From NCBI GenBank assembly GCA_963674695.2, contig CAXXGI010000001.1, positions 448,001 through 512,000 on the forward strand: DNA of 64,000 bases. The letters run 5' to 3'. Under the pieces are notes generated by a model. The model was not told where the DNA came from and did no database searches. It saw only the letters and a list, made by a program, of their open reading frames with translations. Positions 7,715 through 43,175 of this stretch are shown one piece after another. This stretch comes from a bacterium. Lineage in GTDB: Bacteria > UBA10199 > 2-02-FULL-44-16 > JAAZCA01. Position numbers and translations under genes: made by a program. Position 1 is the first letter of the stretch, and every line of letters begins with the position of its first letter.

Positions 7715-7830
7715 TGTCATCCCCGCCTGCCCGCCTCCGGCGGGAGTGATTCTATCGGGGATCCAGTCCCGGAAAGTCGTACAACAAAGGCATCTGCCTG
7801 GATTCCCGCCTACCCCATGCGGGAATGACA
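7715..7830. repeat. Palindromic REP/REPIN-like element 1, with 19-nt nested insertion and outer inverted repeats
   Basis: TGTCATCCCC...GGGGATCCAG / CTGGATTCCCGC...GCGGGAATGACA. Outer IR 7693-7710 vs 7836-7853 (16/18). Confidence 0.85.
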
Positions 7831-7904
7831 AAAACAAAAAACAGGTTTCTAGAGATACCCCACAGACGCTTCTCGGTTCTTGATCTTTGGTCCATGGTCT
7901 ATGG

Positions 7905-10900
7905 TCAAAGCGGAGAGATGCCTTCGCGGACATACTTGGCGGCAAAGCCGCCGCCGTCGGCATCGATGAAGATGGGATTGGCCAGCCCCCAGGCGGACGC
8001 ACCCACCCGCGGGTCGGCGTGAAAGGCGGTGAGATCAGCAGGGTCGAAGATCTCGGGCGCATCCTTCGCATCGACGAGCGCATACGTCACGATGGGAAAG
8101 AGCGATCGATACCCCTCGGTGGATGGCGTCCCGCGCGCCATCGCCACCACCCAGGTATCCTCCGCAACGTTCATCTCGAAGGTGACGCTCGCCGTGATCA
8201 CACCCTCCTCTTCCGTCCAATTCTCGAGCGTCCCGTCGGAGAGTTTGAAGCTGCGCTCCGGCTGATAGGTGTAGCGCGGCGTGTGATAGGGTTTATAAAA
8301 TTCAGCGGGATCGGCGGCGGTGCCCTGCATGGGCATGTCGGTCGCGTCATCGACCGGAATGGGTTCCGTGTTGGCGTAGATCTCGATCGTGTCGAACCAT
8401 CCCCAGGAGGGCGCACTCACCTCGACCGTGAAGGTCGCCTTCGATCCTGAAACCGTCCCGCCGATCTCAGCCGAATCGCCATCCGCGCCGACGGCGCGCA
8501 CCATGACGACAGGACCGGCCGAGACCGAAACCCGCAGCGCATTGATGTTGCGTGCATACTCCTCCAGACCGATGGCGTCGTGGCTCCCCCCCATGCCGTC
8601 GCGCGGATCGACCGAGTGTGCGATGAAGTTGCGCGGCAGGCCCATGGGGTTGGCCGCACCTCGATGGCTGTCGGAGTCGGCGGTAGCCGCCACGATCTGG
8701 CCCAAGTTGAGGAGGTTGAACCAGGTCGGAATCGCCGATCGATAGAGCATCTCGGTGTCGTGCAGGTGCATGCCGATCACGAGTTCCACCGCGTTGTAGT
8801 CGGTCGTCATCAACCCCGAGCTTCCGAAGGAAGAGGGAATCCCGCCACTCGCTGCCGGCATGCGCCGCGAGAGCGGATCGGCATAGGTGGAAAGCGGTGC
8901 CACGCCGAACCCCTCTTGATAGAAGGGAGTGGTCACCCAGCCGGTCGCCAACAGCAAGCCCGTGGGGTTATCCATAATGTGGTTGAGCATGATCACTTCT
9001 TCGCCGGGATCCTCGCGCAGCTGTGGAATCATCTCGTCGAGCGTCCAGACGAAATCCGGCGCGGGGGAGACCTCTTCCGCATTCGAGCCGCTCCAATCGA
9101 ACGCCCCGCCCTCGGGATCGGAGGGATCATGGTCGAGCGGGAAGACGTGCAGATGCCCATAGTGATTCGGCGTCACCTCATCGCCCACGGACGTCTGCAT
9201 CGAACCGGGCGGAATGAGACCGCGATCTTCGAGACGCGCGAGCACCGGCGCATAGTCGGTGAGATAGTCGTGATCGGAGGACTGCAAGACGTCGAGCCCC
9301 TCGGCTGCGGCCGAGAGCACGCGCAGCTCATGGTTGAGTTTCGAATCGGGACTCGTGATCGAGTGGACGTGAAAATCGGCGCAGACATATCCGGGTGTGC
9401 GCGCCGCACGTCGCAGCTGCAGGCCGTCGAGCACGGCCTGCCCCCCTGCGGGCACCTCCACGACGCGCTCGTCGCTCGTGTACTCCGGACCATGGCTCAC
9501 GACGATGCGATAGGTCCCCGGCTCCAGGGTGAGCGTGGCGCTCCCGGTGAGATCGAACGTCCCGCGCGCGGTGAGGTATTTCACATCGACGATACCGAAG
9601 CGCTCTTCCCAATGGATGGTGGAACGAAAGCGACCGGCGCTGCCCACCTTGTTGGGACTCGGATCCTCGCCCACAATCGTGAGTCGTGCAGGGATCGCAC
9701 CGCCCGTCTCGGCATCGATGACGGGCCCGGAAAGCATCAGTGATCCGCGCTCGCCGAGCGTGCAGGTGATGCTGGCCGATTCGCGCGTGCTCAGATCGAT
9801 CGTGGCCGGATCGCAGCTGCCCGCATCGGTCGTGCCATTGAGATGATAGCCGAACTTATCCACGACCACCGAATAACGACCGGAACCGAACCCGCGCGAG
9901 ATGACATCGCCGCCGGTGGGAAGGTCGCCGGAAAAACGCCCCTGCGCATCGGTGCGATAGGTGATCACCGCCGCCGCCCCATCCATGATCGCCACCGTCG
10001 CCCCTTGCACGGGCGTGCCGCTGGCATCGACCACGCTTCCGGAGATGGGTCGACGCGCGGCACCGAGCAGACGCAGGCCCTCGTCGAGGACCGAACCGGC
10101 GGAACCGTCGCCGACGACGAAGTAGCTCGTGATCGTACGCGAGGATGAAGGCGCAATGCTGAAATGAATATCCGGTTCGCCGCCGCTTCCCAGGGGAGCG
10201 AGTTTTAAAAACTCCTCACCGAAGATCACGCCGGTGACATCGGAGTAACTCACCGAGGTGGTGGTGTGCGGCTTGCCCGTATCCGGATCGAGGAACTGCT
10301 GCGGATCGAAGAAGTAGCCGTAGGAGACATCGACCTCGTCGAATCCCGCATAGATCACCGCGGGCGTATTCGCGCCCACCTGCGTCATGAGATCGGGCGA
10401 AAAACCCAGCCCCGGCACGAGCATCGAAACCTGTCCGGAGCCGTTGAGAAACGTCCCCATCGGAATCTCGACGGAATCGCTCCCCTCGTTCGTAAAGGTC
10501 GTCTCAATGCGAACACCGCGCGCTCCCGGCTCGAGGATATAGTCGGTGATCACCTCGGCACTCATCGCCTTCAAGTCGCCATAGATGTCGAAGGGGTTTT
10601 TGAGATCATCGAATCGGTTGGAGAAGGTGATCGCCTGACCGGCAACGCCCTCGGCCACATCGCCGATAAAATCCAGATCGAGGTAGTCGTAGACATCGAT
10701 GCGACCCTTGGCACGCAACACTTTTGCTGAACCGTCGGAACCATCGGAGATCACCTCATAGTCATAGGTGTTGACCGTCCACTCGATGTTCACGAGGGGA
10801 AAGAGCGAACCGAAATTATCCTGGCCCGCGCCCGATCGATTGAGATCGGCGTCGATGATATTGCCGCCGAAGGAATTGACGCCCGCATTCTTGCGCGGCT

Positions 10901-11129
10901 TCTGGATGATGACGCGAATGCGCTCGTTGGCGAGCAGCACATCCCCCACACGCCCCTGCGCCATGGGCCCGCCGATGAGATCGCCTTCATCGGTGATCGT
11001 GAGCGGAGTGATCGGATAGGCCGAAAAATTCGGATCCATCGGCGCCACGCCCTTGTCGCAGGCACAAACCCCGACGACCAGGCAGACCACGATCACTATG
11101 TTGTGCCAAGAGTTCTGCATCGTCACCAT
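7905..11129 (-). CDS. Lipoprotein PHP-domain metallohydrolase (CehA/McbA-like) with carboxypeptidase-regulatory-like domain
   Basis: Lipobox VCAC; PHP motifs DFHVHS, SSDHD, GHLHVFP, NH, DSDSH; ISGSVVDASGTPVQGATV domain. Start trimmed from 11522 to the ATG before the signal peptide (11129 or 11120). Confidence 0.8.
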   Translation of the reverse strand: MVTMQNSWHNIVIVVCLVVGVCACDKGVAPMDPNFSAYPITPLTITDEGDLIGGPMAQGRVGDVLLANERIRVIIQKPRKNAGVNSFGGNIIDADLNRSGAGQDNFGSLFPLVNIEWTVNTYDYEVISDGSDGSAKVLRAKGRIDVYDYLDLDFIGDVAEGVAGQAITFSNRFDDLKNPFDIYGDLKAMSAEVITDYILEPGARGVRIETTFTNEGSDSVEIPMGTFLNGSGQVSMLVPGLGFSPDLMTQVGANTPAVIYAGFDEVDVSYGYFFDPQQFLDPDTGKPHTTTSVSYSDVTGVIFGEEFLKLAPLGSGGEPDIHFSIAPSSSRTITSYFVVGDGSAGSVLDEGLRLLGAARRPISGSVVDASGTPVQGATVAIMDGAAAVITYRTDAQGRFSGDLPTGGDVISRGFGSGRYSVVVDKFGYHLNGTTDAGSCDPATIDLSTRESASITCTLGERGSLMLSGPVIDAETGGAIPARLTIVGEDPSPNKVGSAGRFRSTIHWEERFGIVDVKYLTARGTFDLTGSATLTLEPGTYRIVVSHGPEYTSDERVVEVPAGGQAVLDGLQLRRAARTPGYVCADFHVHSITSPDSKLNHELRVLSAAAEGLDVLQSSDHDYLTDYAPVLARLEDRGLIPPGSMQTSVGDEVTPNHYGHLHVFPLDHDPSDPEGGAFDWSGSNAEEVSPAPDFVWTLDEMIPQLREDPGEEVIMLNHIMDNPTGLLLATGWVTTPFYQEGFGVAPLSTYADPLSRRMPAASGGIPSSFGSSGLMTTDYNAVELVIGMHLHDTEMLYRSAIPTWFNLLNLGQIVAATADSDSHRGAANPMGLPRNFIAHSVDPRDGMGGSHDAIGLEEYARNINALRVSVSAGPVVMVRAVGADGDSAEIGGTVSGSKATFTVEVSAPSWGWFDTIEIYANTEPIPVDDATDMPMQGTAADPAEFYKPYHTPRYTYQPERSFKLSDGTLENWTEEEGVITASVTFEMNVAEDTWVVAMARGTPSTEGYRSLFPIVTYALVDAKDAPEIFDPADLTAFHADPRVGASAWGLANPIFIDADGGGFAAKYVREGISPL

Positions 11130-11385
11130 TATCCCCTCTCGAAGAGAGGCTCGCGTTGTACGGCTGTATCGGCATCTCGCTGAATTTGTTGCGTCTTTAT
11201 TGAACATGCCTGTCCGATGCACGGTGCAGGGCGGCATGGGCATGCCGCGACACGTCGGAGATGCGCTAACATACTGATATATTTGCAATAACATGAATTG
11301 CCCCCGAGGGGAATTCCTTGACGCCGCCCCCACCGATCGCATATGAATCGCTCGCACGCACACCCATTCACCCAGGAGGATCATC

Positions 11386-12477
11386 ATGATCATCGGCGTT
11401 CCCAAGGAGATCAAAACGAAAGAGACGCGCGTGGCCGTCACGCCCGAAGGCGTGAAGCAGTTCGTCGCGGCCGGACACACGGTCTTCGTCGAAAAAAATG
11501 CAGGGGCCCTGTCCGGCTTCAAGGACGAGGACTACACGAGTGCGGGCGCCACGCTCCTGCCGACCGGCAAGGATGTCTGGGACAAGGCCGAGATGATCGT
11601 GAAGGTAAAGGAACCGCTCGAGAGCGAATATAAATATTTCCGCGCCGGCCTCAAGCTCTACACCTATCTGCACCTGGCCAGCGTTCCGCAATTGGCCAAG
11701 GCGCTGTGCGAAGCGAATGTGGAGAGCATCGGCTATGAAACGGTGGAGACCGAAACGGGAAACCTCCCGCTGCTGATCCCGATGAGTGAGGTCGCCGGAC
11801 GCGTCGGCGCGCAGGTCGGAACGTATCTGCTCCACGCCAACCACGGCGGCAAGGGCGTACTCCTCGGTGGCGTCACCGGCACGCGGCCGGGAACGGTCGT
11901 GGTCGTCGGCGGCGGCGTGGTCGGCATCAACGCAGCCGAAGTGGCCTCAGGCCTTCGCGCCGAAACGATCGTCCTCGACATCAGCGACGATCGACTCGCC
12001 TGGATCGAGAAGACCTATCAGGGAAAGATCCGTCCGGTGAAATCGACCGCGCAGTCGATCGCCGAGTGGACGAAAAAGGCCGACCTGCTCGTCGGCGCCG
12101 TGCTCGTCGCGGGCGATCGCGCACCACACGTCGTGACCGAAGAGATGGTGAAAACCATGGAGCCGGGTTCGGTGATCGTTGACGTCGCCATCGACCAGGG
12201 CGGCTGCGTGGAGACGATTCGCGCCACCAGCCACGCAGAGCCGACCTATGTCGCCCACGGCGTCATTCACTATGCCGTTCCCAACATGCCGGCGCTCACA
12301 CCGCACACCTCGACGGAGGCGCTCACCACCGCCACGCTCCCCTACGGTCTGGAACTGGCGACCAAGGGATGGGACAAAGCACTGGCCGACGACGCGGTGC
12401 TGGCCAAGGGCCTGCAGACGAAGAACGGCAAGGTCACGCTGCCGGTGCTGAAGAAACTGTTTCCGGAATTGGCGTAG
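11386..12477 (+). CDS. ald: Alanine dehydrogenase
   Basis: MIIGVPKEIK..ETRVAVTP, KVKEP, YLHLA, PLLIPMSEVAGR, DVAIDQGGCVET, YAVPNMP; AGGAGG RBS. Confidence 0.96.
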   Translation: MIIGVPKEIKTKETRVAVTPEGVKQFVAAGHTVFVEKNAGALSGFKDEDYTSAGATLLPTGKDVWDKAEMIVKVKEPLESEYKYFRAGLKLYTYLHLASVPQLAKALCEANVESIGYETVETETGNLPLLIPMSEVAGRVGAQVGTYLLHANHGGKGVLLGGVTGTRPGTVVVVGGGVVGINAAEVASGLRAETIVLDISDDRLAWIEKTYQGKIRPVKSTAQSIAEWTKKADLLVGAVLVAGDRAPHVVTEEMVKTMEPGSVIVDVAIDQGGCVETIRATSHAEPTYVAHGVIHYAVPNMPALTPHTSTEALTTATLPYGLELATKGWDKALADDAVLAKGLQTKNGKVTLPVLKKLFPELA

Positions 12478-12544
12478 TCTTGTGAGATGGTGAGATGGCT
12501 GAATCGTGAGATGGCGAAACCAGGATAATGACAACCCTTGGATG

Positions 12545-12571
12545 TGTCATCCCCGCGAAAGCGGGGATCTC
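12545..12571. repeat. Half copy of the palindromic element (element 2)
   Basis: TGTCATCCCCGCGAAAGCGGGGATCTC. Confidence 0.8.
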
Positions 12572-12582
12572 GACTTAAAAAC

Positions 12583-12613
12583 AAAAACCGTCTGCGCGAG
12601 CAGGCGGTTTTTT
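12583..12613. terminator. Bidirectional intrinsic terminator between ald and coaX
   Basis: AAAAACCGTCTGC-GCGA-GCAGGCGGTTTTTT between convergent genes. Confidence 0.8.
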
Positions 12614-13364
12614 ATTTCTGGGAATCGTTCCAGGCCAGGCGCAATCCTTCGACGACGAGGTCGGGATGGACGTGTTGGATGCGGGGCAGATGCGGTGCGA
12701 TCGCTCGCGCGCCACCGCCAGTAGCGATGATGACGGGTTTTCCTCCCATCTCATCGAGTATGCGCGCGAGCACACCGTCGATCGCACCGATGAGTCCGAA
12801 GTGGATCCCTGAGGCGATACACGCGCGCGTATTCGTTCCGATCACACGCCGGGGTCGCTTCGCAGAGATCAGCGGCAGCTGCGCGGTGGAATCGGCGAGC
12901 GCCCCCGCCTGCAGCTCGACCCCCGGCAGAATCGCCCCACCGAGGAAGACGCCATCGCTGGAAACCGCATCGAAGGTGACGGCGGTACCGATGTCGACGA
13001 CGATGAGCGCGTGCTCGTAGCGCTCCCATGCCGCGCGCGCAACGAGCAGACGATCGATACCCACCTGACGGGCGGGATAGGAGCCCAGCGGAATCCCGAC
13101 CTCTTTCGGACCCACACGCATGGGCGCAATGCCGAGGAGACGCATGCATTCCCGGCTGATGACACCGGTGCATTCCGGGACGACGCTGGCCAGAGCGCTC
13201 CCCTCCGGCGTGCACCCGGGCTCGAGCGCCCCTTCAAGCTGCGCTGCCAGAGCCTGCCCTGTAGCGACCTGACGCGTCGCCAGCGTCGTGCGCCGCACGA
13301 TCCGCCGCCCCCGAAAGAGCGCCAGATGCACGGTGGAATTGCCGATGTCGATAGCGAGAAACAT
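12612..13364 (-). CDS. coaX: Type III pantothenate kinase
   Basis: LAIDIGNS, ASVVP, VGIDR, VVDIGTAVTFD, GGAILPG, ATGG motifs. Confidence 0.95.
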   Translation of the reverse strand: MFLAIDIGNSTVHLALFRGRRIVRRTTLATRQVATGQALAAQLEGALEPGCTPEGSALASVVPECTGVISRECMRLLGIAPMRVGPKEVGIPLGSYPARQVGIDRLLVARAAWERYEHALIVVDIGTAVTFDAVSSDGVFLGGAILPGVELQAGALADSTAQLPLISAKRPRRVIGTNTRACIASGIHFGLIGAIDGVLARILDEMGGKPVIIATGGGARAIAPHLPRIQHVHPDLVVEGLRLAWNDSQK

Positions 13365-13576
13365 ACCACCCTCATACCGCGCGCCAGAAATAATTCAATA
13401 CATTTCAGTCAGTTAGCGCATCCCCTGCAAAAGCGGTCAAAACCCTACCACTGGGAAGGCCGTTTGGAGCGGTAGGAAAATGACCACCTCGTGGCAACGT
13501 CAGGAACCCCTTGACTCTGAAGGGGATATGGCTTAGAGATCGCCGCTCGTCATCACGCTGGAAAGAGAGGAACGGT

Positions 13577-13939
13577 ATGTCGCTCAATCAGAAATACACC
13601 TGGAACGACTTCCTCCGGGACAACCCCGAGATGAAGGAAAAGGGCATCAAGCGCACCAGCTCCGAGGGCAAGAAGGCCTTCGAGGCCGCGTATAAGAAGG
13701 CGATCAAAGACTATCTGGGCAAGCGCGCCGAGCGCTGCGACACCGAGATCGCCAAGGCGACCAAGCGTCGCGATGGACGCATAACAACGCTCAAGACGTG
13801 CCAGCAGATCAAGAACAAGACCAAGCGCAAGATCCGCAGCGGCATCGCGCAGAAGAAGGTCGGAGCCACCGATCACGCGATCGCTGCACTCTCAAAGATA
13901 AAGGAAAAGACCACACAGCTGCAGAAGACGTTCAAGTGA
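13577..13939 (+). CDS. Small Lys/Arg-rich hypothetical protein (120 aa)
   Basis: GAGAGGA RBS before ATG 13577; strongly host-like codon usage; candidate TTGACT-17-TAGAGA promoter at 13511; terminator downstream. Confidence 0.8.
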   Translation: MSLNQKYTWNDFLRDNPEMKEKGIKRTSSEGKKAFEAAYKKAIKDYLGKRAERCDTEIAKATKRRDGRITTLKTCQQIKNKTKRKIRSGIAQKKVGATDHAIAALSKIKEKTTQLQKTFK

Positions 13940-13947
13940 TCCCGATC

Positions 13948-14043
13948 TGTCATTCCCGCGCAGGCAGCCTGCCCGCCGGTTGTGTGGCGGGGGAATCTCG
14001 CTTTTCATGACAAATCGGGATCCCCGTTTTCACGGGGATGACA
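13948..14043. repeat. Palindromic element 3 with 25-nt nested insertion
   Basis: TGTCATTCCCGCGCAGGC[AGCCTGCCCGCCGGTTGTGTGGCGG]GGGAATCTC...GGGGATGACA. Confidence 0.9.
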
Positions 14044-14066
14044 CAACCAAGGTTTTTCAGCCGTCT

Positions 14067-14095
14067 AACCGCCTCCGAAACGAGGCGGTTTTTTT
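14067..14095 (+). terminator. Intrinsic terminator
   Basis: AACCGCCTC-CGAAAC-GAGGCGGTT followed by a T run. Confidence 0.8.
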
Positions 14096-14123
14096 ATGCG
14101 CTCTCAAGAAGAGTCCCTCTCCA

Positions 14124-14235
14124 GGAGGCGCCATGGCATCTGCACCGCGAGGTGGAGGGCGAACCCATTTTTACAGCTTCATCGGAAAAATGGTTTCGCC
14201 CTCCGCCGGGAGGCGCCGTGGCATCTGCGCTGCGA
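14124..14235. repeat. 27-nt direct repeats flanking a 57-nt hairpin
   Basis: Repeats 14124-14150 and 14209-14235 (24/27 identical); stem arms 14151-14172 and 14186-14207 (20/22). Confidence 0.8.
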
Positions 14236-14255
14236 TGAGGAAATACAGCACGTTT

Positions 14256-15245
14256 TTACGATTGAAGGATCGCGTCGACGAAGGCCTGCGGATCGAAGGG
14301 GCGAAGGTCGTCCATGCCCTCGCCCACACCGATATGCGTGATGGGAATGCCGAGCTGGCCGGCCACGGCGCAGACGATGCCGCCCTTGGCCGTGCCATCG
14401 AGTTTGGTGACGATGGCGCCGGTGAGATCAATCGCTTCGTGAAACTGCCGCGCCTGATTGAGTCCGTTCGATCCCACCGTTGCATCCAGGACGAGCCAGC
14501 GCTCGTGCGGAGCGCCCGGCAGGGCCTTGGCGATCACGCGCCCCACCTTTTTGAGCTCCTCCATCAGATTCACCTTCGTATGCAGACGGCCAGCCGTGTC
14601 GATGAGGACGACGTCATATCCCTTGGCCTTGGCCTTTTCCACGCCGTCGAAGGCGACCGCCGCCGGATCCGCGCCGTGCGCCTGCGCGACGACCTCGACC
14701 TTTAAGCGCTCGCCCCAGACCTGCAATTGTTCGACCGCCGCTGCACGAAAGGTGTCGCCCGCGACGAGGAGCACGCGCTTGCCCTCATTCTGAAAAGCAC
14801 GCGCGAGCTTGGCGATGGTCGTCGTCTTGCCCACGCCGTTCACACCCAACACGAGGATCACGCGCGGGTGTCCCTCGACGGGTCGATGCGAAGAAAAGAG
14901 CGCCGTCAACCGCTGCGCGAGGGCATGTTTGACGGCGGATGCATCCGGCTCCTTCCGAACCGATGCGAGGAGCGTTGCGGTCACATCGATGCCGACGTCC
15001 GCCTCGACGAGCGTTGCTTCCAGATCCGCGAAAAAACGCTCGTCGAGAGTGCCGCGCCCCATCAGGTCATTGAAGCGAGAGGCGATCCGATCGTGTGTGG
15101 ATTTGAGGCCGACGGTCAGCGGGACAGGACCGCTCGCCTTCGGCGATCCCGTGCGTCCGCGCAAGCGCTGCACGACAACGATGATGAGAGCGCCAAAAGC
15201 CACGACGGCGAGGGCCAAACGAATGAGAAAAAGGATATCGGTCAT
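14256..15245 (-). CDS. ftsY: SRP receptor FtsY with N-terminal TM helix
   Basis: GVNGVGKTTTIAKLA, DTFRAAA, DTAGRLH, TKLDGTAKGG, IGVGE motifs. Confidence 0.97.
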   Translation of the reverse strand: MTDILFLIRLALAVVAFGALIIVVVQRLRGRTGSPKASGPVPLTVGLKSTHDRIASRFNDLMGRGTLDERFFADLEATLVEADVGIDVTATLLASVRKEPDASAVKHALAQRLTALFSSHRPVEGHPRVILVLGVNGVGKTTTIAKLARAFQNEGKRVLLVAGDTFRAAAVEQLQVWGERLKVEVVAQAHGADPAAVAFDGVEKAKAKGYDVVLIDTAGRLHTKVNLMEELKKVGRVIAKALPGAPHERWLVLDATVGSNGLNQARQFHEAIDLTGAIVTKLDGTAKGGIVCAVAGQLGIPITHIGVGEGMDDLRPFDPQAFVDAILQS

Positions 15246-15325
15246 AGTGGGTGAGGAGATAGGCGCGTTTCACCCGCGCGTCAAGCACGCTGCACAAGAA
15301 AAGGCCGGGCGAAATCGCCCGGCCC

Positions 15326-15493
15326 AGACTGCTGACAAAGTCCCTTCATGTTATCATTATCCAAAATCGAAGTTTGTCATTCCCGCGAAAGCAGCCTGCC
15401 CGCCGGTTGTGTGGCGGGGGAATCTCGCTTTTTACGGCACATCGAGATCCCCGCTTTCGCGGGGATGACAACGGCAGAGTTTGTCATCAACCT
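15326..15493. mobile_element. MITE-like element enclosing palindromic element 4 (15375-15470), flanked by a duplicated GC hairpin
   Basis: Imperfect TIRs AGACTGCTGACAAAGTC / GAGTTTGTCATCAACCT (13/17). Flanks GGCCGGGC..GCCCGGCC at 15303-15324 and 15494-15515. Confidence 0.65.
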
Positions 15494-15555
15494 CGGCCGG
15501 GCTTTCGCCCGGCCGTCTTCCCTTTCAACTTTTCACTTTTAACTTTCAACTGCCT

Positions 15556-31253: not shown

Positions 31254-31323
31254 TGTCATTCCCGCATGCAGGAAGCAGCCTGCCCGCCGGTTGTGTGGCG
31301 GGGGAATCCAGCCAAAGCCTTTC
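31254..31323. repeat. Palindromic element 5 (partial) with 25-nt nested insertion
   Basis: TGTCATTCCCGCATGCAGGAAGC[25-nt insert]GGGAATCCAGCCAAAGCCTTTC. Confidence 0.85.
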
Positions 31324-33387: not shown

Positions 33388-33463
33388 TGTCATTCCGAGC
33401 GTAGTCGAGGAATCTCATGAGATCCCTCCACTCCCTTGTATAACTCGGTCGGTCGGGATGACA
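33388..33463. repeat. Palindromic element 6 (variant arms)
   Basis: TGTCATTCCGAGCGTAGTCGAGGAATCTC...GAGATCCCTCC...GTCGGGATGACA. Confidence 0.8.
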
Positions 33464-33484
33464 TACAACAGGGTTTTCCCCAAC

Positions 33485-33516
33485 GTAAAAGGGCTGCCGT
33501 GAGGCAGCCCTTTTAC
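33485..33516. terminator. Bidirectional intrinsic terminator
   Basis: GTAAAAGGGCTGCC-GTGA-GGCAGCCCTTTTAC. Confidence 0.85.
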
Positions 33517-33536
33517 ATTTTCACTTCTCATCGACT

Positions 33537-34274
33537 CTATTTCTTCTTGAGCTCTTCAATTTCAAAATGCTCGATTGGAAGTCCAGCGCGCTCGGCCACG
33601 AACTCGATCTGCTTGCGCGGGATCTTCTGCCCGAGTTTCTTGGAGTAGACCATCTCGAACTCGGCGTTCCACAGCGGGAACTTCCGTGTCGTCGGCGTCT
33701 CTTCGACCTTGATGAAGTTCGTCGGACAGACATACGCACAGGAACCGCATCCGATGCAGTCGATCGCCTCGGCATTGAGCGGCGGTGAAACCTTCCGATC
33801 CTTGCCGCGCTCGGAGAATCCGATGGCGTTGGCACCGACCACCTCGCTGCACGCGCGCACACAGTTCCCGCAGAGGATACAGCCCTCTTCCTGTTTGGAG
33901 AACTTTGTCTCCGTCACGCCCCATTTTTTCGCCAACTCGACAACCTCAGGAACGTTCGACGAACGCGCCAGCGTGAACTGCATGATCATATTGCGAATAC
34001 GCACCACCTTGTCGGAATTCGTCCGAAAGGTCTGCCCATCCTTGACCGGGAAATTGCACGAGGTGACCATCTTCGACCAGTCGCCGCGATCCCACTCCAC
34101 GAGGCAGAGCCGGCACGCACCGTAGGAGCTGACATCGACGTGATCGCAGAGTGTCGGAATTTCGATGCCCTCGCGACGGCAGACGTCGAGCAGCCGCTCG
34201 CCCGCGGTGGCCTTCACCTGCTTGTCGTCGAGAGTGATGGTAATCTGATCTGACATAGTCGATTGCCTTTCCAT
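33537..34274 (-). CDS. Fe-S protein homologous to the HydA/NuoG N-terminal part (BfuA-like), with no catalytic domain
   Basis: IPTLC..GACRLCLVE..TSC [2Fe-2S]; CILCGNCVRAC and CIGCGSCAYVCP 2x[4Fe-4S]. Ends after ~245 aa. Start 34274 or 34256. Confidence 0.85.
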   Translation of the reverse strand: MERQSTMSDQITITLDDKQVKATAGERLLDVCRREGIEIPTLCDHVDVSSYGACRLCLVEWDRGDWSKMVTSCNFPVKDGQTFRTNSDKVVRIRNMIMQFTLARSSNVPEVVELAKKWGVTETKFSKQEEGCILCGNCVRACSEVVGANAIGFSERGKDRKVSPPLNAEAIDCIGCGSCAYVCPTNFIKVEETPTTRKFPLWNAEFEMVYSKKLGQKIPRKQIEFVAERAGLPIEHFEIEELKKK

Positions 34275-34304
34275 TCGCCCCTCCATCACATCGGGAGGGA
34301 TCTC

Positions 34305-36194
34305 TTATTCCACATGAATCGCATCGAACTTGCACGCCTCGGCACACATACCGCATTTGATGCATTTATCTGTATCGATCGTGTGCAGCTTGAGTTTCGC
34401 GTGCGGCTTACCCTTAACCGTCGCGGGTTTGTCCGTCACGGAGATCGCATCGACGGGGCAAACTTTCACGCACGCGCCGCAACCGGTGCAACTGCCATCC
34501 ACCACCGAGAAGGTGATGAGGTTCTTACAGACCTTGCCCGGGCACCGTTTGTCCTTGATGTGCGCGTCGTATTCGTCGCGAAAATACTTGATGGTGGAGA
34601 GCACCGGATTCGGCGCCGTACCGCCGAGCGCACAGAGCGAACCTTCGAGGATCGACTCGCTCATCTCTTCGAGCAGCTCCACATCCCCTTCTTTGCCGTC
34701 GCCCGCACAGATGCGATCGAGGATCTCGAGCATGTGGCGAACGCCCTCGCGGCAGGGCGTGCACTTGCCGCAGGACTCTTCGGTAAGAAACTTCGTAAAG
34801 TAGCGCGCCACATCCACCATGCAGGTATCTTCGTCCATGACGATGAGGCCACCGGAACCCATCATCGACCCAACTTTCGTCAGCTCGTCGAAGTCAACGT
34901 GAAGATCGAGCATCTTCTCGGGCAAGCAGCCACCCGACGGACCGCCGGTCTGCACCGCTTTAAACTTCTTCCCATTCGGAATCCCGCCACCGATGTCGAA
35001 GATGATCTCGCGCAACGTAAGCCCCATAGGCACTTCCACGAGCCCCGTGTTGTTGATCTTGCCGACGACCGAGAAGATCTTGGTCCCCTTGCTCCCCTTC
35101 GTACCGATTTTGGCGAAACTCGCCGCGCCTTCGCGCAGGATGAGCGGCACGTTGGCCCAGGTCTCGACGTTGTTGAGACAGCTGGGTTTATCCCACAGAC
35201 CATACTCGGCTGTATGAATGTATTTCGCGCGCGGCTCGCCGATCTTTCCTTCGAGCGATGCCATAAGCGCGGTCGATTCGCCGCAGACGAACGCGCCACC
35301 GCCGCGACTGATGATGATGTCGAAATCGAATCCGGAACCCAGGATGTTCTTTCCCAGAAGCCCCATCTCCTGCGCTTGCTTGATGGCGATGCGCGCATTT
35401 TTTACCGCCAGCGGATACTCGTTACGCACATAGATGTAGCCCTCTTTCGCGCCGATGGCATACGCACCGATGATCATGCCCTCGATCACGCTGTGCGGAT
35501 TCCCTTCGAGCAACGAGCGATCCATGTAGGCACCCGGATCGCCTTCATCCGCGTTGCAGATCACATAGCGACGTTTGCCCGGCTGCGCCTTGCGCACCGT
35601 CTCCCACTTGCGCGCGGTGAGAAAGCCACCGCCGCCGCGCCCACGAAGCCCCGCCTCTTTGACTTCCGTGATGATCGCCTCGGGATCCATCGCGAATGAT
35701 TTTTCCAACCCCGCGTATCCACCCTCGGCGATGTAGTCGTCGATCGAATCGGCGTTGATGCGCTGGTTCGCGCCGAAAATCAGGCGGTTCTGCTTGGCGT
35801 AGAAGGGAACGTCCTTCTCATAGACGGCCTTGTCCCCCTCGGGACCGGTGTAGACGAGTTTGTCGATCACCTCGTCGCCGAACACCGATTTGGCCAGGAT
35901 GTCGGGAACATCGGCGGGATCGATGCGCTGATAGAAGATACCCTTCGGGCTGATCAGCGCCAGCGGGCCGCGCTCGCAGAAGCCGTGACAACCCGAGACA
36001 CGCAGGGTGACCTTGTCTTCGAGTTTCTTGGCGGCAATCTCCTGTCGGAAGGCATCGATCACCTTCTGGCAGCCATAGCCGTGGCAGCCTGTGCCACCGC
36101 AGACGGTGACGATGGGCGTTATCGGATTGCGCTCCTGCTGCAACTTCGTGCGCAGCGCTTGAAGCGCCTTCATGTCGGTTAGATTCTGTGTCAC
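34305..36194 (-). CDS. HydB/NuoF-like NAD(H)/FMN subunit with extra Fe-S domains (BfuB-like)
   Basis: N-terminal CGGTGC..GCHGFC; GLRGRGGGGF, NADEGDPGAYMDR, FVCGESTAL, ESCGKCTPCREG; HIKDKRCPGKVC; C-terminal 2x[4Fe-4S]. Confidence 0.92.
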   Translation of the reverse strand: MTQNLTDMKALQALRTKLQQERNPITPIVTVCGGTGCHGYGCQKVIDAFRQEIAAKKLEDKVTLRVSGCHGFCERGPLALISPKGIFYQRIDPADVPDILAKSVFGDEVIDKLVYTGPEGDKAVYEKDVPFYAKQNRLIFGANQRINADSIDDYIAEGGYAGLEKSFAMDPEAIITEVKEAGLRGRGGGGFLTARKWETVRKAQPGKRRYVICNADEGDPGAYMDRSLLEGNPHSVIEGMIIGAYAIGAKEGYIYVRNEYPLAVKNARIAIKQAQEMGLLGKNILGSGFDFDIIISRGGGAFVCGESTALMASLEGKIGEPRAKYIHTAEYGLWDKPSCLNNVETWANVPLILREGAASFAKIGTKGSKGTKIFSVVGKINNTGLVEVPMGLTLREIIFDIGGGIPNGKKFKAVQTGGPSGGCLPEKMLDLHVDFDELTKVGSMMGSGGLIVMDEDTCMVDVARYFTKFLTEESCGKCTPCREGVRHMLEILDRICAGDGKEGDVELLEEMSESILEGSLCALGGTAPNPVLSTIKYFRDEYDAHIKDKRCPGKVCKNLITFSVVDGSCTGCGACVKVCPVDAISVTDKPATVKGKPHAKLKLHTIDTDKCIKCGMCAEACKFDAIHVE

Positions 36195-36655
36195 GATTTC
36201 GACCCCTTCAGTTCATCGATGAGGGCGGCGGTCTTGGTGCCGTCCATCTTGCCATGATAGTCTTCGTTCACCACGATCACCGGTCCCAACGCGCAGCACC
36301 CAACGCAGTTGACCGTCTCGAGCGTCACTTTTTTGTCTGTGGTCGTCTCGCCGGCACCAACGCCGAAGCCGCGCTCAAGTTCTTCGAGCAGACGCTGTGC
36401 GCCGCGCACGTGGCACGCGGTTCCCATGCAGACGTTCACCACCTTCTCGCCACGCGGGGTCAGCGAAAATGCCGAAAAGAACGTCGCCACGGAAAAGATC
36501 TGGGCGAGCGGAATGTTGAGGAGTGTGGACACCTGCTTGAGCGGCGCCTCGGGCAGATAGCGATAGTGCGTCTGCACATCCTGCAGGATACCGATGAGCT
36601 GGTCCGGCCGGTTCTGATGATCGGCGCAAATCTTGTCGACGGTCTTTAAATCCAT
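36191..36655 (-). CDS. HydC/NuoE-like [2Fe-2S] subunit (BfuC-like)
   Basis: VATFFSAF, VCMGTACHVRGA, VNCVGCCALGP. Confidence 0.92.
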   Translation of the reverse strand: MDLKTVDKICADHQNRPDQLIGILQDVQTHYRYLPEAPLKQVSTLLNIPLAQIFSVATFFSAFSLTPRGEKVVNVCMGTACHVRGAQRLLEELERGFGVGAGETTTDKKVTLETVNCVGCCALGPVIVVNEDYHGKMDGTKTAALIDELKGSKS

Positions 36656-36685
36656 GGTGGCGTCCTCATTCGAATCGTTTCGGCT

Positions 36686-37618
<933 letters not shown>

Positions 37619-37646
37619 AGTCGATTCCCTGTCGTGGTGAATGGTG

Positions 37647-38822
37647 CTATTCCCGAACGAAGAGCAACTCGGTACGACTGTCCTGCCCCTTCTCCGCTAG
37701 CCCTTCGCCGCGCTCGATCATGCTGACGAACTGCTCGGGAAGGATGTCGCGCCCGCCAAGGCCCGCGATAAATCCGATCACCTTCGGGCGAATCGGCTTG
37801 TCATAGAGCGCGCTGCGAATCTCGCTGGCCACCGGGCCGCCAGGGCCGCCCGAGGAGATGGCGCGATCGAGGACGATCAGGTTCTTCGCCCCCTTGACCG
37901 CCTCATAGAAATCTTCGAAGGGGAACGGCCGCCACAGGCGCAACTTCACCTGGCCGACCTTCTTGCCCTTCGCGCGCAGCTCATCGACCGCCACCGAAGC
38001 CGTCTCGCCGTAGCTGCCCATGGTGAAGATCAGCGTCTCGGCATCGTCAGCCTTGTAGGTCTCCACGGCCTTGTACTCGCGGCCGAAGTGTTTGCCGAAT
38101 GCTTCCCACATCTCGTCGAGCACCGGACGGATGGCGAGGAAGTCGTTTTCCTGAGCGGCCTTGATCTCGGTATAGATGTTGGGGGGAGCGAACGTTCCCA
38201 TGCTGACCGGCTCGCGCGGGTCGAGCGGCTTGGGAAACTGATTGTCGGGCAGGAAGGCTTTCACCTTCTCTTCATCTTCCATGAAGATCGGCTCGACCAC
38301 GTGCGTCAGGTGGAAACCGTCCATGTTGATCATCACGGGGAAGAGCACGCGTTTGTCCTCGGCGGTGCGGAACGCCCAGATGATATGGTCGAAGGATTCC
38401 TGGCCGTTCTCGACGAAGATCTGGATCCAACCGGTGTCGCGCACGGCCATTACGTCGGAGTGATCGCCCCAAACTGAGAGCGGTGCGGAGAGCGCACGGT
38501 TGGCGACCGTCATGACGATGGGCAGACGCATGGAGCTGGCGAGATAAACCGCCTCGTGCATCAGCTCCAAACCCTGACCGGCCGTGGCCGTAAAGGTGCG
38601 TGCACCCGCGGCGGATGAACCCAAACAGGCGCTCATGGCGGAGTGTTCGCTCTCGACACAGACGAACTCGGCGTCGAGTTCGCCATTGGCGACCAGCTCC
38701 GAGAGATGCTCGACGATGTGCGTCTGCGGCGTGATGGGATATGCGGCCACCACGTCGGCGTTGCAGAGCATAACCGCCTCGGAGACCGCCAGTGAAACCT
38801 CAATGCCTTCGCGCTTTCCCAT
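37647..38822 (-). CDS. porA: Pyruvate/2-oxoacid:ferredoxin oxidoreductase alpha subunit
   Basis: AAYPITPQT, ESEHSAMS, NRALSAP, DHSD, DGFHLTH, WRPFP, GLGGRD. The ORF extension to 39083 runs through a repeat and was rejected. Confidence 0.93.
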   Translation of the reverse strand: MGKREGIEVSLAVSEAVMLCNADVVAAYPITPQTHIVEHLSELVANGELDAEFVCVESEHSAMSACLGSSAAGARTFTATAGQGLELMHEAVYLASSMRLPIVMTVANRALSAPLSVWGDHSDVMAVRDTGWIQIFVENGQESFDHIIWAFRTAEDKRVLFPVMINMDGFHLTHVVEPIFMEDEEKVKAFLPDNQFPKPLDPREPVSMGTFAPPNIYTEIKAAQENDFLAIRPVLDEMWEAFGKHFGREYKAVETYKADDAETLIFTMGSYGETASVAVDELRAKGKKVGQVKLRLWRPFPFEDFYEAVKGAKNLIVLDRAISSGGPGGPVASEIRSALYDKPIRPKVIGFIAGLGGRDILPEQFVSMIERGEGLAEKGQDSRTELLFVRE

Positions 38823-38846
38823 GGTAACTCCGTAATTCGTACTTGC

Positions 38847-38917
38847 TGTCATTCCCGCGCAGGCGGGAATCTCGCTTACGACGGCACATCGAGATCCCCG
38901 CGTTCGCGGGGATGACA
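38847..38917. repeat. Palindromic element 7 (empty counterpart of elements 3 and 4)
   Basis: TGTCATTCCCGCGCAGGCGGGAATCTCGCTTACGACGGCACATCGAGATCCCCGCGTTCGCGGGGATGACA (71 bp). Confidence 0.9.
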
Positions 38918-38943
38918 AAAACACGATTGTGCCATCAACTCTT

Positions 38944-39240
38944 TTACTTTTCCTTCTTCTCTTCACCCATGGCCACCATCTCGAACGAGCCGGTCCAGCA
39001 CTCGCGCGCGCAGATGCCACAGCCCTTGCAGTAGTATTCATCCACCTCGATATAGCCGTCATCCTTGATCTTGATGGCCGCATCCGGGCAGAACATATAA
39101 CAGACGCCGCACTTCACGCAGCGATCCTTGTCGTAGACGGGCCGCTGACTGCGCCAATCGCCGGTGCGATAGGCCTTCGCGCCGCCAGGCGTGTCGACGA
39201 TGAAGCCGGTCTCGATCTCTTTCCAGGTTCTGTCTGCCAT
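38944..39240 (-). CDS. porD: Pyruvate/2-oxoacid:ferredoxin oxidoreductase delta subunit
   Basis: TGDWRSQRP, CVKCGVCYMFCP, YCKGCGICAREC. Confidence 0.93.
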   Translation of the reverse strand: MADRTWKEIETGFIVDTPGGAKAYRTGDWRSQRPVYDKDRCVKCGVCYMFCPDAAIKIKDDGYIEVDEYYCKGCGICARECWTGSFEMVAMGEEKKEK

Positions 39241-39275
39241 CGTTCACTCCGTGATTCATTCTGCGTTATTCATCG

Positions 39276-39830
39276 TCACCCGGTGATCGTCGTCTCGCCG
39301 TAGGCGCGTTCCAGCGCCTTCACGTTCCGCTCGGCGAGCTTCGGATTGAAGCGCGCCTCGATCTGCGGAATGAGTGTCTTCAGCGGAACCACCTCGCTGG
39401 CCTTGATGAGCGAACCGATCATGGTCGTATTCGTGATGGGAACCTTGAGCGTCTCGAGCGCAACGGTGAGCGCATCGATCGTGGCAAGCTTGCCCTTATA
39501 GGCCTTCATCTTCTGGCGAAGCTCGGCCTCGGGCATCTTGGTATTGACCACGACGAGCCCGCCCTCTTTGAGGCCGGAGGTTACGTCGACGATATCGATG
39601 AGGCCGTCGTCGAGCACCACGACGATGTCGGGGCGGGTCACCTCGGCACGCACGCGGATCTTTTCGTCGGAGACGCGCAAGAACGCCTGCACCGGCGCGC
39701 CGCGGCGCTCCGGCCCGAAGGAGGGCATCGACTGCGCGAACTTGCCCTGTGCGATGGCCGCCAGCGCCACCAATTCAGCGGAGGTCACGGCCCCCTGGCC
39801 GCCTCGTCCATGAAAACGAATTTCGAGCAT
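39276..39830 (-). CDS. porC: Pyruvate/2-oxoacid:ferredoxin oxidoreductase gamma subunit
   Basis: EIRFHGRGGQGAVT, FGPERRGAPV, NTTMIG. Confidence 0.93.
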   Translation of the reverse strand: MLEIRFHGRGGQGAVTSAELVALAAIAQGKFAQSMPSFGPERRGAPVQAFLRVSDEKIRVRAEVTRPDIVVVLDDGLIDIVDVTSGLKEGGLVVVNTKMPEAELRQKMKAYKGKLATIDALTVALETLKVPITNTTMIGSLIKASEVVPLKTLIPQIEARFNPKLAERNVKALERAYGETTITG

Positions 39831-39952
39831 GGCTACCTTCCAAAGTGTTGATATTTATAGATTAATAACCAGGTTTTCTGCGAAAGCGGGCGCACGTTCG
39901 CTCTTTTAGGGGGCGATGTCAAGGAAAGATCGGGAGAAAAGACGCGTCGGAC

Positions 39953-42931
39953 CTAGAACGCCGGCCGGTACATATCGACCGGAATCTCCGGAGGGTCGCC
40001 GGGGCGCAGCTCGCGCGCGAAGGCAATGAGTTCCTGCACATAGCCGAAGGAGACCCCGCCGGAATAGCTGCGACCGGGCAGGACGAAGCGATCGACATCG
40101 GAGGTGAGCGGAATGCGCCGAAATCCTTCGGCCTCCATGAGCTCGGCATAGCGATCGCTCGAATACGCCATTCGCCATTCATCCGGGCACATCACGGCAC
40201 GGTCATCCTTTCCATCGCCATCATAATCACCCACCACAGGATGGCACTCTCCCCCTCCATAAACGTTATCTGGAGGGAGCGACGTAAATGAAGCAAAATA
40301 ATCACTTCCAAATGCTACATTCCATTCCTCGGAGCTATTATCCTTGATCGCTGGGGCACTCCATGAACTGGCGGGATCAAAGCGCCCGGGAATAGGAATC
40401 GCTTCATTTCCTCCATAGATCGGACCCGCATATCTCATGATATCAAACGCACCAGTAGGATTCGTCAACACAACCATACGTCCCTCATCAGCGATACCAT
40501 CTGGATATTTATAACTGAAATACGGAGAGTGTTCTGACAAATTTGAAAAATCGTGACCGAAGGCGAGATACGCCCAGCCAGGCGCCTGCGCCAACTCTTC
40601 ATCGGACAGATATTCGAATTCAAATTCATATCCCGAAAAATCGCCTTCGTCCGTACCACCATAATCGACACGCCAGATGCCATCGGAGCAGGCAATGGCG
40701 ATGTCCATAAAACCATCTTCATCGTAATCACCCAATACCGGGCGGCTGTAGTTGGAGCAGTTCGGGCCTGTGCGTGTGGCGCAGGAGAGCGGGTCGAGTT
40801 TGAGGTCGTCGACCCATTGATCGCTGTAATCGAGCACCCAGTCCCAGCCGTGCCAGGAGCTGCGGCGAAGGATATCGACGTCGGTGAAGGCGATGTAAAA
40901 GGTGCCGTGTTCCTTGTCGTAGACCACGAAGTCGCTGCGACCGTCGGCGTTCACATCTTCCACATAGGGCCAGACCCAGCGTCCGTCGATGGGATCGTGT
41001 GTGATCTCGACATCCCAACTTCCAAAACCGTCGGCGGCTTCACCCATGGACGAGAGGTCGAGCTTCCAGGTGCCGTTGGTCCACTGCACGAGGTCAGCAC
41101 GCCCATCGCCGTCGAAGTCGTAGTGATCGGCAAAACCGGTCTGCGGCGTGAAGAGCTCTTCGTCCGGACAGATCGGATCGGAGTTCACAAGATCACCCTC
41201 TTTGCAGATGATGCCGATGCCAGCCGCGCGCAGGGCAATCATGCGCTCTTCGGTGAGGATCTCGCCGGAATCGAGCTCCGGATACTGGGCCCGCATCTGG
41301 GCGAGAAACGTATCGACTGTATTCATGGCGACATCGATGCGCGGCTGGGTGCCGATGTTGCAGCCCGCATCGCTCTGATTGACCCCCGAACCGACGATGA
41401 TCTCGCGCATCTTGGGCGGCATGAGGTAGCGCTTGTAGCCGAGCTCCCCTCTCGCATAGCTCTGCACGAGCACCGCCGCGCCGCCGACGATGGCCGCCGC
41501 CGACGAGGTGCCGCCGAAATTGTCGATGAAATAGCTGTTGGTCTCGTCATTCGGCGGAATCGGTCCCTGCGTGCCGTTCCACCCATAGAGGCCGTAGGGA
41601 TAGCCCGTAGTCACGACCCCTTGGCCCCAGGAAAAACTGTTTACGCGTGAGCCGCAGTTGGAAAACGAGATCTTTTCTTCGTTCGCGCCCTGGCTTGCCC
41701 CCACCATGATGGAGCCGGCATCCTCGACCGAGAGGTCGTGGGCAAACGCCCACTCGCCCGTGTAGAGTTCGGGGTTGTCCAGATCCATCTGGCCGTTTCC
41801 GGAACCGGAGATGACGGTCACGCCATAGGCCGTGGCCTGCTCGATGGCCGCAAAGTCTTCGGGCCACAGCTCGGTGGGAACGCAGCCGTATTGATCACTG
41901 GCATACTGCCCCGAGCAACTCCCATCGCTGAGTTTTCCGGGAAGCTGCACTTCGATCACCCAGATGGTGCCGGGCTCAATATCCGTGAGAAGCGGATTGT
42001 TCCCCGGATCCACTCCGTCGGTCGCATTCCTCAGCGCACCGTATGTTCCATTCCCCAACGACACTTCGAGCAAGAACGCATCCGGGGCAAATCCTGTGAC
42101 GCCATGACCATTATCGAGCGCCGAAAGAACACCCGCCACGGCCGTTCCGTGCGCTATGTAGGACTCACAGTTTGGAAAATCGTTTGTATAGCCAGGCGCA
42201 CAATCGGGGTAGTACAGAAAATTACCACCATCCTTGAAATGCTCATCAATGAGCCCGAGGTCCTCGTGAAAAAAGTTCATGCCGTGTTCGTTATCGACCA
42301 CAATGACATCTTCGCCCGTAACCCCCGCATTCCAGGCGGCGTGGGCGTTCAACCCCCCGTGCGTCGATTCGGGAAAGAGATAGCCCTGCAAGCCGTCGAG
42401 CGCAGGGGTTGCGGCCAGGCCCGCGGGGCTACCCCGAAGCGCCGGATAGATCCTGGCCACGCCCGCCATGCCGCGCAGCTCGTTCAAGAGCGCAATGGCG
42501 TCTTCGGCGTTATTCGTTTCGATGTGATAGATGGAGTTCCAATCGGTGAGCGCCTTGCCCGAGAGCCGCTCGAGCTTGGCGCGACGCAGATCGACGACAT
42601 CGGCGTCGGCTTCAATCGCACGCACGATGCGCGATGCCGGAAAACGCTTGATCGCGTTCTCGACCGACGCGATGAGCGCCGCTTTGTTCGTGGAGGTGGT
42701 GAGGGCTTTGGATTCGTTCATGCGCACCGCGAGCGCGTCGTCGAAGTGGACGACCAGGTGACCCGCGTAGGCATCGGACTGAATGAGCGCTGCCATCGTC
42801 GTGGGCTCGCCTGCACCCACGTCCGGTTCCGGCGCACTTTCTGGTGAAGGATTACTTCCGCCACCGCAGGATGCGGATGCGATCATCATCGCCACAACGA
42901 TACCCACACGCATGGACCACAGCCTGCGCAT
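39953..42931 (-). CDS. S8 (subtilase) lipoprotein with C-terminal FG-GAP/VCBS repeats
   Basis: Lipobox SASC; triad VVDNE / HGTAVAG / GGTSSA; repeats DFDGDGRAD, DVNADGRSD, GDYDEDGFMD, GDYDGDGKDD; GAGGAG RBS. Confidence 0.9.
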   Translation of the reverse strand: MRRLWSMRVGIVVAMMIASASCGGGSNPSPESAPEPDVGAGEPTTMAALIQSDAYAGHLVVHFDDALAVRMNESKALTTSTNKAALIASVENAIKRFPASRIVRAIEADADVVDLRRAKLERLSGKALTDWNSIYHIETNNAEDAIALLNELRGMAGVARIYPALRGSPAGLAATPALDGLQGYLFPESTHGGLNAHAAWNAGVTGEDVIVVDNEHGMNFFHEDLGLIDEHFKDGGNFLYYPDCAPGYTNDFPNCESYIAHGTAVAGVLSALDNGHGVTGFAPDAFLLEVSLGNGTYGALRNATDGVDPGNNPLLTDIEPGTIWVIEVQLPGKLSDGSCSGQYASDQYGCVPTELWPEDFAAIEQATAYGVTVISGSGNGQMDLDNPELYTGEWAFAHDLSVEDAGSIMVGASQGANEEKISFSNCGSRVNSFSWGQGVVTTGYPYGLYGWNGTQGPIPPNDETNSYFIDNFGGTSSAAAIVGGAAVLVQSYARGELGYKRYLMPPKMREIIVGSGVNQSDAGCNIGTQPRIDVAMNTVDTFLAQMRAQYPELDSGEILTEERMIALRAAGIGIICKEGDLVNSDPICPDEELFTPQTGFADHYDFDGDGRADLVQWTNGTWKLDLSSMGEAADGFGSWDVEITHDPIDGRWVWPYVEDVNADGRSDFVVYDKEHGTFYIAFTDVDILRRSSWHGWDWVLDYSDQWVDDLKLDPLSCATRTGPNCSNYSRPVLGDYDEDGFMDIAIACSDGIWRVDYGGTDEGDFSGYEFEFEYLSDEELAQAPGWAYLAFGHDFSNLSEHSPYFSYKYPDGIADEGRMVVLTNPTGAFDIMRYAGPIYGGNEAIPIPGRFDPASSWSAPAIKDNSSEEWNVAFGSDYFASFTSLPPDNVYGGGECHPVVGDYDGDGKDDRAVMCPDEWRMAYSSDRYAELMEAEGFRRIPLTSDVDRFVLPGRSYSGGVSFGYVQELIAFARELRPGDPPEIPVDMYRPAF

Positions 42932-43078
42932 ACTCACTCCTCGTGCAACCCGGCCTCCCCCCAATGGGCGCTTCACAACGATCCCTTTTCGGCGATCGCG
43001 CACAAATGTTTCGTGGTTTCTCATCGACATCGGCCAGAAAGACCCCTGGGCACCCGAAAAAACTCGTCTTTTGAACGG

Positions 43079-43175
43079 TGTCATTCCCGCGTGAAGTAAG
43101 CGGGAATCCAGCCAAAGCCTTTCCACGTATGGATTTCTTGGGCTGGACCCCCGATTCAAGCACTCGGGGGTGACA
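43079..43175. repeat. Palindromic element 8 (arms are empty counterparts of elements 5 and 1)
   Basis: TGTCATTCCCGCGTGAAGTAAGCGGGAATCCAGCCAAAGCCTTTC...CTGGACCCCCGATTCAAGCACTCGGGGGTGACA. Confidence 0.88.

Follow-up and report, generated by a model that had tools for sequence, protein, structure and literature searches.

The 64,000-nt stretch analyzed here (positions 448,001 to 512,000 of contig CAXXGI010000001.1; hereafter, the window) belongs to a bacterial genome of 3.03 Mb in three contigs (C1, C2, and C3) and contains several copies of a very short hairpin module, which we call M1, nested in larger palindromic repeats. The 25-mer AGCCTGCCCGCCGGTTGTGTGGCGG has exactly three exact matches in the window, all on the + strand, at 13966-13990, 15393-15417, and 31277-31301, and none of 100 dinucleotide shuffles of the window contains it. 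The copy at 13966-13990 reads as an A followed by a GCCTG tag, the stem sequence CCCGCC, a GGTTGTGT loop, and GGCGG. A 19-nt short-loop relative, GCCTGCCCGCCTCCGGCGG (M1s; GCCTG, CCCGCC, TCC, and GGCGG), lies at 7725-7743 on the + strand. The general form of M1 is a single-stranded 5' tag, GCCTG, a stem of 6-7 bp (YCCGCC(R)/(T)GGCGGR), and a variable loop. We think it probable that M1 is a discrete hairpin module of 19-27 nt that has been inserted many separate times into pre-existing DNA. Each window copy is enclosed by a hairpin with the pattern GTCAT[T/C]CCCGC-loop-GCGGG[A/G]ATC, and these host hairpins mostly occur as inverted pairs (doublets) of 69 nt that fit the Neisseria transformation sequence (NTS) and Ssn-related motifs (SRMs).

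Two of the 25-nt copies, those at 13966-13990 and 15393-15417, sit in the host doublets 13949-14042 and 15376-15469, and the second of these doublets, once the insert is removed, is a single nucleotide (of 69) away from each of two empty doublets in other parts of the genome. The third is in a different host subtype, a 29-nt-type arm with a longer loop (31255-31308, followed by CCAGCC), and despite this difference it occupies the same relative position, GC^GGGAAT (with the caret at the insertion point). An earlier reading of the stretch, the original prediction, had placed an identical 25-mer at the same point of three elements at 13948, 15375, and 31254; the matches are as described, and the three numbers mark where the host elements begin rather than the 25-mer itself. 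M1s lies in the 5' stem of arm 7716-7764, part of the doublet 7716-7829, and empty doublets of that type exist.

Empty hosts are present in the same window: a 69-nt doublet of two inverted GTCAT-tagged hairpins of the NTS/SRM type (38848-38916, +), a solo arm, GTCATCCCCGCGAAAGCGGGGATC (12546-12569, +), a doublet at 44864-44936 (+), a relative of the arm at 31255 (43080-43108, +), and an arm of the type that bears the 19-mer at 7716 (43146-43174, -). The alignment of 38847-38917 with 15375-15470 has a single 25-column gap, between GC and GGGAATC, and a few substitutions, just as had been proposed for element 38847. The left arm of element 43079 had been taken for the empty form of element 31254: the two have GGGAATCCAGCCAAAGCCTTTC in common and the module is absent from the former, but the loops differ (GCGTGAAGTAAGC vs GCATGCAGGAAGCA), so this arm is an empty relative and not an exact empty allele. 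The right arm of element 43079, GTCACCCCCGAGTGCTTGAATCGGGGGTC on the - strand, does correspond to the empty form of the 19-mer-bearing arm type at 7716-7764. Read from the sequence, the boundaries of the insert are unambiguous at 25 nt where A precedes, and those of the 19-mer allow a shift of one base. Because filled and empty alleles differ solely by the module, no target was duplicated; the insertions of M1 are precise. Folding predicts a three-way junction for the filled arm, with the outer 6-bp host stem intact. At 33389-33462 the window has a doublet that belongs to another subtype of GTCAT-tagged hairpin, in which GTCATTCCGAGCGTAGTCGAGGAATC is paired with GTCATCCCGACCGA..GGAGGGATC.

The host hairpins are abundant across the genome, with 650 GTCAT..GGRAT[C/G] arms (335 of the basic 24-nt form) and 238 doublets. 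They agree with the NTS consensus CGTCATTCCCGCGMAVGCGGGAATCYRG and with the wider SRMs; GTCATTCCCGCGAAGGCGGGAATC and its variants, which have the GTCAT tag and fit the NTS/SRM motif, account for 326 matches. In passages of the study that describes them, NTS/SRM motifs are linked to GIY-YIG nucleases that are small, consist of a single domain, and cleave single-stranded DNA (ssDNA) next to the hairpin (PMC11893778). A 96-aa GIY-YIG gene of this genome is Ssn-like (C1:912169-912456, or L127:1489-1776; PF01541, 53 bits) and has clusters of GTCAT-tagged hairpins of the GTCATCCCGA subtype on both sides, the same repeat-gene-repeat arrangement as has been described for ssnA. Among 41 related genomes, the host hairpin pattern is present in 26 and M1 in 4. 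Host arms in this genome also carry two further loop modules that start with GCCTGYCC, in the orientation opposite to that of M1 (for example, in arms of 51 and 48 nt): one with a CCCTCG..CGGGGG stem, in 28 copies, and one of the form AGCCTGTCCTGAGCG.AG.CGAAGG, in 9 copies and in 15 of the 41 relatives.

Genome-wide, the pattern GCCTGCCCGCC-N3-14-GGCGG has 30 matches, all of which have the form GCCTG-CCCGCC-loop-GGCGG, and a 24-mer search allowing up to 2 mismatches returns 24 (21 of them exact), with 0 for the reversed control. Twenty copies, which we call type A, share the same point and orientation in the basic arm, on the strand bearing the GTCAT tag: the preferred target in this genome is one exact position, GC^GGGAATC, in NTS/SRM-matching hairpins. 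The short-loop form is present in five copies at GTCATCCCC^GAGTG. Insertions at ATCG^GGGATCC are seen at C3:224177 and C3:276330, and the arm at C3:224177 already bears the short form, giving two modules within one host (C3:224177-224233). Other copies are at GTCATTCC^GGGAATC (C3:632335), in a CCCCTCCCC hairpin (C1:727349), and at GTCATCCC^GACCACG (C2:896477). A further copy lies outside the window in a GGGTCAC heptamer array (C3:554226), in frame within a MiaB-like gene with UPF0004, Radical_SAM, and TRAM domains (C3:553516-554949, or L164:514-1950, -); the gene contains, all in frame, a 27-nt variant of M1 and four GGGTCAC heptamers, and together these make one loop exceed its counterparts in ten relatives by 13-23 residues. 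The targets are therefore not confined to hairpins like repetitive extragenic palindromic (REP) sequences, the kind that had been proposed, because tandem heptamer arrays and coding sequence are among them.

Could the 25 nt have a single origin, as a variant host loop, and then have been amplified with the host and spread by gene conversion or recombination between repeats? Such an origin would account for 20 of the 24 long-loop copies having the same host type, position, and orientation, and the host loop immediately upstream, GCAGGC, and the module tag, GCCTGC, are reverse complements, as might be expected if the module originated by snap-back copying within a host of this kind. The genealogy of the hosts argues otherwise. 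We built a tree of 125 doublets of 66-72 nt, of which 112 are empty and 13 are filled doublets of type A from which the insert was deleted (7 of the 20 type-A copies and 126 of the 238 doublets, being longer or incomplete, were left out). On this tree the filled state changes 13 times, the same as for shuffled labels (range 10-13 and mode 13 in 500 shuffles), and a single filled clade is rejected by the approximately unbiased (AU) test (p 0.00475, log-likelihood difference 66.7). Each of the 13 filled copies has an empty doublet as its nearest or tied-nearest host, differing at 1-7 of 69 positions, and the insert is in the ATTCCC arm of 11 filled doublets and in the ATCCCC arm of 2. The filled copies have multiple origins and are not one lineage.

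Diversity around the insertion point bears on the same question. Among the 20 type-A copies, the insert has a diversity of 0.004, as against 0.129 for the 18 host nucleotides to its left and 0.027 for the 10 to its right; the corresponding values for 323 empty arms are 0.115 (left) and 0.048 (right). Diversity in the adjoining host bases is about 30-fold that of the insert. The host positions that vary most lie 1-6 nt away from it, and filled and empty copies are equally diverse there, so recombination between repeats would need to carry the insert without its neighbors. M1 is also found at other host positions, in the in-gene heptamer array, and, elsewhere, in unrelated repeats with empty alleles of their own. 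For these reasons we regard a single origin followed by spread with the host as unlikely, and gene conversion, which the original prediction had offered beside independent insertion, is unlikely to be the sole process, since markers 1-6 nt away stay diverse and the module is also in non-homologous hosts. Independent insertion, the other suggestion, is supported by the tree, the AU test, and the other contexts of the motif: the outcome that had been named as speaking against it, a single clade of filled copies and a motif confined to these hosts, is not what is seen.

The tree by itself cannot separate gain from loss, and it is therefore also compatible with a filled ancestral form from which empty arms were produced by repeated precise deletion. 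This seems hardly credible given that empty arms outnumber filled ones by about 16 to 1 (323 vs 20) and are common in 22 related genomes without the module. Slippage between the GGC repeats on either side of the insert, moreover, would, as read from the sequence, leave GGCGGGGGAAT, whereas what is observed is GGCGGGAAT.

Filled and empty alleles of M1 are also seen in another host and another genome. The four related genomes with the module are all outside the family of the window, and one of them, G023, which belongs to another family, has 36 copies. Some of these are in a repeat of about 100 nt that is unrelated to the host in the source genome, with 3 empty copies (..GGGAGGGGGTT^GGGGGGAGGGTG..) and 6 filled copies that carry exactly the 24-nt GCCTGTCCGCCGGTAGTGTGGCGG. 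A congener of G023, G038, was considered as a filled/empty ortholog and set aside: the composite repeat is wholly missing there (spacer of 128 nt vs 489 nt, flanks about 70% identical), which is uninformative on the module alone. On contig C44 of G023 (L181:6569-17923), a 3784-aa open reading frame (ORF) with no Pfam match contains seven in-frame M1 copies, on either strand, together with host repeats, which are translated as short proline-/glycine-rich linkers between repeated segments. M1 is independent of its host repeat, in this genome and in others.

In a wider genome collection, a degenerate pattern matches 101 loci in 46 records, some of which may be among the 41 related genomes; these records carry more than a dozen phylum labels, none of them cyanobacterial, and 8 have at least 2 loci. 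The flanks differ from record to record and are palindrome centers or boundaries of tandem 6-7-mers, heptamers included, while the module is letter-identical in some records labeled as different phyla. A collection of viral contigs has 0 matches to the module pattern. At the positions left free by the search pattern, the stem closing pair is C-G in 59 copies, T-A in 16, T-G in 18, and C-A in 3, counts that come from related copies and are thus not an independent test of covariation; the base after GGCGG covaries with module position 6, so the stem includes that pair.

Near-invariance within the genome, identity across records of different phylum labels, and covariation of the closing pair, with G-T pairs included, are also what might be expected of a functional site, such as a protein-binding or RNA-processing signal, that is selected and repeatedly recruited and not mobile. 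However, no Rfam family matches the module, and M1 is found in frame within coding sequence and inside other repeats. It occurs on either strand relative to GC skew, and so to the direction of replication (10 vs 20, p 0.10), and it is missing from 37 of the 41 related genomes. We consider a recruited functional site improbable as the explanation of M1.

Several observations nonetheless weigh against our preferred reading of M1 as an inserted module. The shared host type, position, and orientation of most long-loop copies are what co-amplification with the host would also produce, and the short-loop form is found only in the other arm type. The host tree is based on only about 69 columns, and the near-identity of the inserts could reflect selection on the insert rather than recent insertion. 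No orthologous locus was seen to be filled in one strain and empty in another. Three sequencing runs of one study contain the stretch, and their contigs end inside the repeats and are uninformative either way; among the run joints listed, to which 102 further joints could be added, none skips the 25 nt. The 41 related genomes compared include none of the same genus. Taxon labels of metagenome bins can be wrong, and single matches in GC-rich isolates (Streptomyces, Deinococcus, and Comamonas) look like chance matches in coding DNA. Finally, no moving enzyme was identified among the Y1_Tnp, IS110, RVT_1, DUF559, and GIY-YIG genes of this genome.

The closest parallel that we can draw is with the small dispersed repeats (SDRs), which are known from heterocystous cyanobacteria. 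SDR1-8 of Nostoc punctiforme and its relatives, reportedly described by Elhai and colleagues in 2008, are said to be 21-27 nt long and to form hairpins with compensatory changes; their copies reportedly lie in tandem heptamers, in mini-transposons, and nested in one another, and recent mobility is said to have been inferred. M1 is likewise short (19-27 nt) and dispersed (30 copies), has a common hairpin with compensatory changes in its closing pair, and is found in heptamer arrays, in other repeats, in a nested pair (C3:224177-224233), and at exact insertion points. It differs in occurring outside cyanobacteria, under many phylum labels, and in having Ssn-type hairpins as hosts. In these respects M1 behaves as the cyanobacterial SDRs are reported to do. 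We know of no account of how SDRs move, and elements of 20-25 nt are, to our knowledge, far below the size shown for any known transposition chemistry; M1 looks like one of the smallest mobile DNAs. For SDR5, precise insertion at one position of HIP1 is described in passages of one study (PMC4390886), and the titles and some passages of the literature citing Elhai 2008 mention no SDR from outside cyanobacteria.

M1 has the same layout as the NTS, a 5-nt tag and then a stem-loop, but its tag is GCCTG and it does not match the pattern used to search for SRMs. Ssn is placed as cutting upstream of the hairpin in passages of the SRM study (PMC11893778), and the M1 insertion point is not at that cut position. 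The word 'nested' is absent from PMC11893778, and a search of the literature, excluding supplements and covering few subscription journals, found no account of M1 or of nested insertions in NTS/SRM repeats.

REP sequences and REPINs, short tagged intergenic hairpins, are thought to be moved in trans as ssDNA by RAYT proteins of the Y1 HUH type, according to passages of two studies (PMC3116915, PMC3733652). M1 is also a short, tagged, dispersed hairpin, but its tag is GCCTG, not GTAG or CGTC, and in this genome it occurs as single nested units, not doublets. Rickettsia (with the Rickettsia palindromic elements) and yeast mitochondria (with the GC clusters) harbor selfish palindromic DNA that enters genes in frame as well as other repeats; these elements are longer than M1 and restricted to their lineages. 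Unlike miniature inverted-repeat transposable elements (MITEs), M1 has no terminal inverted repeats and no target-site duplication, its alleles differing by the module alone. Unlike IS200/IS605-derived elements, it has no fixed tetra- or pentanucleotide on its 5' side (left flanks include GGCA, AGCA, CGCG, CCCC, ATCG, TCAC, and GGTT, among others).

What sets M1 apart for the study of such elements is that it makes mobility testable, with filled and empty alleles that are cleanly distinct in two host repeats unrelated to each other, an exact insertion point, and a conserved tag and stem. Its host repeat has recently been tied to a characterized ssDNA nuclease, and there is a candidate nuclease class to try. 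M1 also shows that the repeats of Ssn-type systems are in turn subject to invasion. Such modules can extend the loops of proteins, of which the MiaB-like gene here is one example and the giant ORF of G023 another.

As for how M1 might move, this genome has the module only as gene-less copies. We suggest that a trans-acting protein would recognize, on ssDNA, the tag together with the foot of the stem and that it would place copies where DNA becomes single-stranded, such as extruded hairpins and slipped tandem repeats. It had been proposed that the motif might flank HUH/RAYT/IS200, IS110, or GIY-YIG genes, and no such gene in this genome is so flanked. For the four Y1_Tnp genes here, no M1 copy lies within 1.5 kb of three of them or within the 300-nt flanks of all four, where other hairpins are found: a different repeat, ..CCACCACGAACGGCCTTCG.., is on both sides of the gene at C3:157637 (L012), and a GCCGCCATTTGCTGCAGC palindrome precedes each of the paralogous genes at C1:749741, C3:279738, and C3:474227. 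M1 does not flank the two IS110 copies, the single reverse-transcriptase (RVT_1) locus, or the GIY-YIG genes of this genome, and its DUF559 locus has no GCCTGYCC-tagged copy. At C2:706912-707929 (L133, L232), a Vsr-like DUF559 gene is directly followed by two reverse-transcriptase fragments. In G023, one M1-like copy adjoins a DUF559 gene, a single case; this genome, 97% complete, has no IS110 or RVT_1 match, so a genome-encoded reverse transcriptase is unsupported there. A composite transposon was also considered and rejected, as the 1.1-1.4 kb between paired filled copies consists of unrelated housekeeping genes.

One lead comes from a second class of small GIY-YIG proteins (about 80-85 aa), which have no BLASTP similarity to the Ssn-like gene and no NCBIfam name. 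In G042, an array of M1-like hairpins (for example, TCCGCC-GAGTAGTGT-GGCGGA) lies directly upstream of an 85-aa GIY-YIG gene. Metagenome relatives of this gene were collected with a single-protein query, with one partial locus left out, and a YCCGCC-loop-GGCGGR hairpin lies within 250 nt upstream in 44 of 62, a fraction that overstates independence because the loci are interrelated; the density is 5.0 per kb there and 0.45 per kb elsewhere. At several of the small GIY-YIG loci there is a second hairpin copy downstream of the gene, and a tRNA gene is present at 19 of 20 loci examined, 15 times within 50 nt downstream on the same strand. The tags at these loci are GGCTGA, GTCTTG, or GTCTG, not GCCTG.

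M1 and its relatives, being YCC/GGR-closed hairpins with a GCCTG tag, could conceivably be the cognate ssDNA sites of this clade of about 80-85 aa, which would spread gene-less copies into extruded hairpins of another nuclease-repeat pair, Ssn/NTS. We hold this as a doubtful lead because the class is missing here, is present in many genomes without M1, and shares its hairpins with tRNA genes that lack it. The best match to the tRNA-linked class in this genome (55 bits) is a small GIY-YIG gene of another kind, genes of the class score above 70 bits in 14 related genomes without M1, and same-stem hairpins follow tRNA genes in this genome with no such GIY-YIG gene beside them; the latter may simply be terminators. 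If the lead were true, M1 and its GIY-YIG gene would be a parasite of a parasite, exchanged between phyla, and cycles of such GIY-YIG-driven events might seed the heptamer arrays around the module.

The small GIY-YIG genes (L234-L296, L200-L215) lie directly upstream of tRNA genes for Ser, Lys, Asn, and Gln and are often bracketed by YCCGCC-NNN-GGCGGR hairpins. At the locus L192, the cassette is flanked on each side by a copy of the same 18-19-nt segment from the 5' end of tRNA-Ser.

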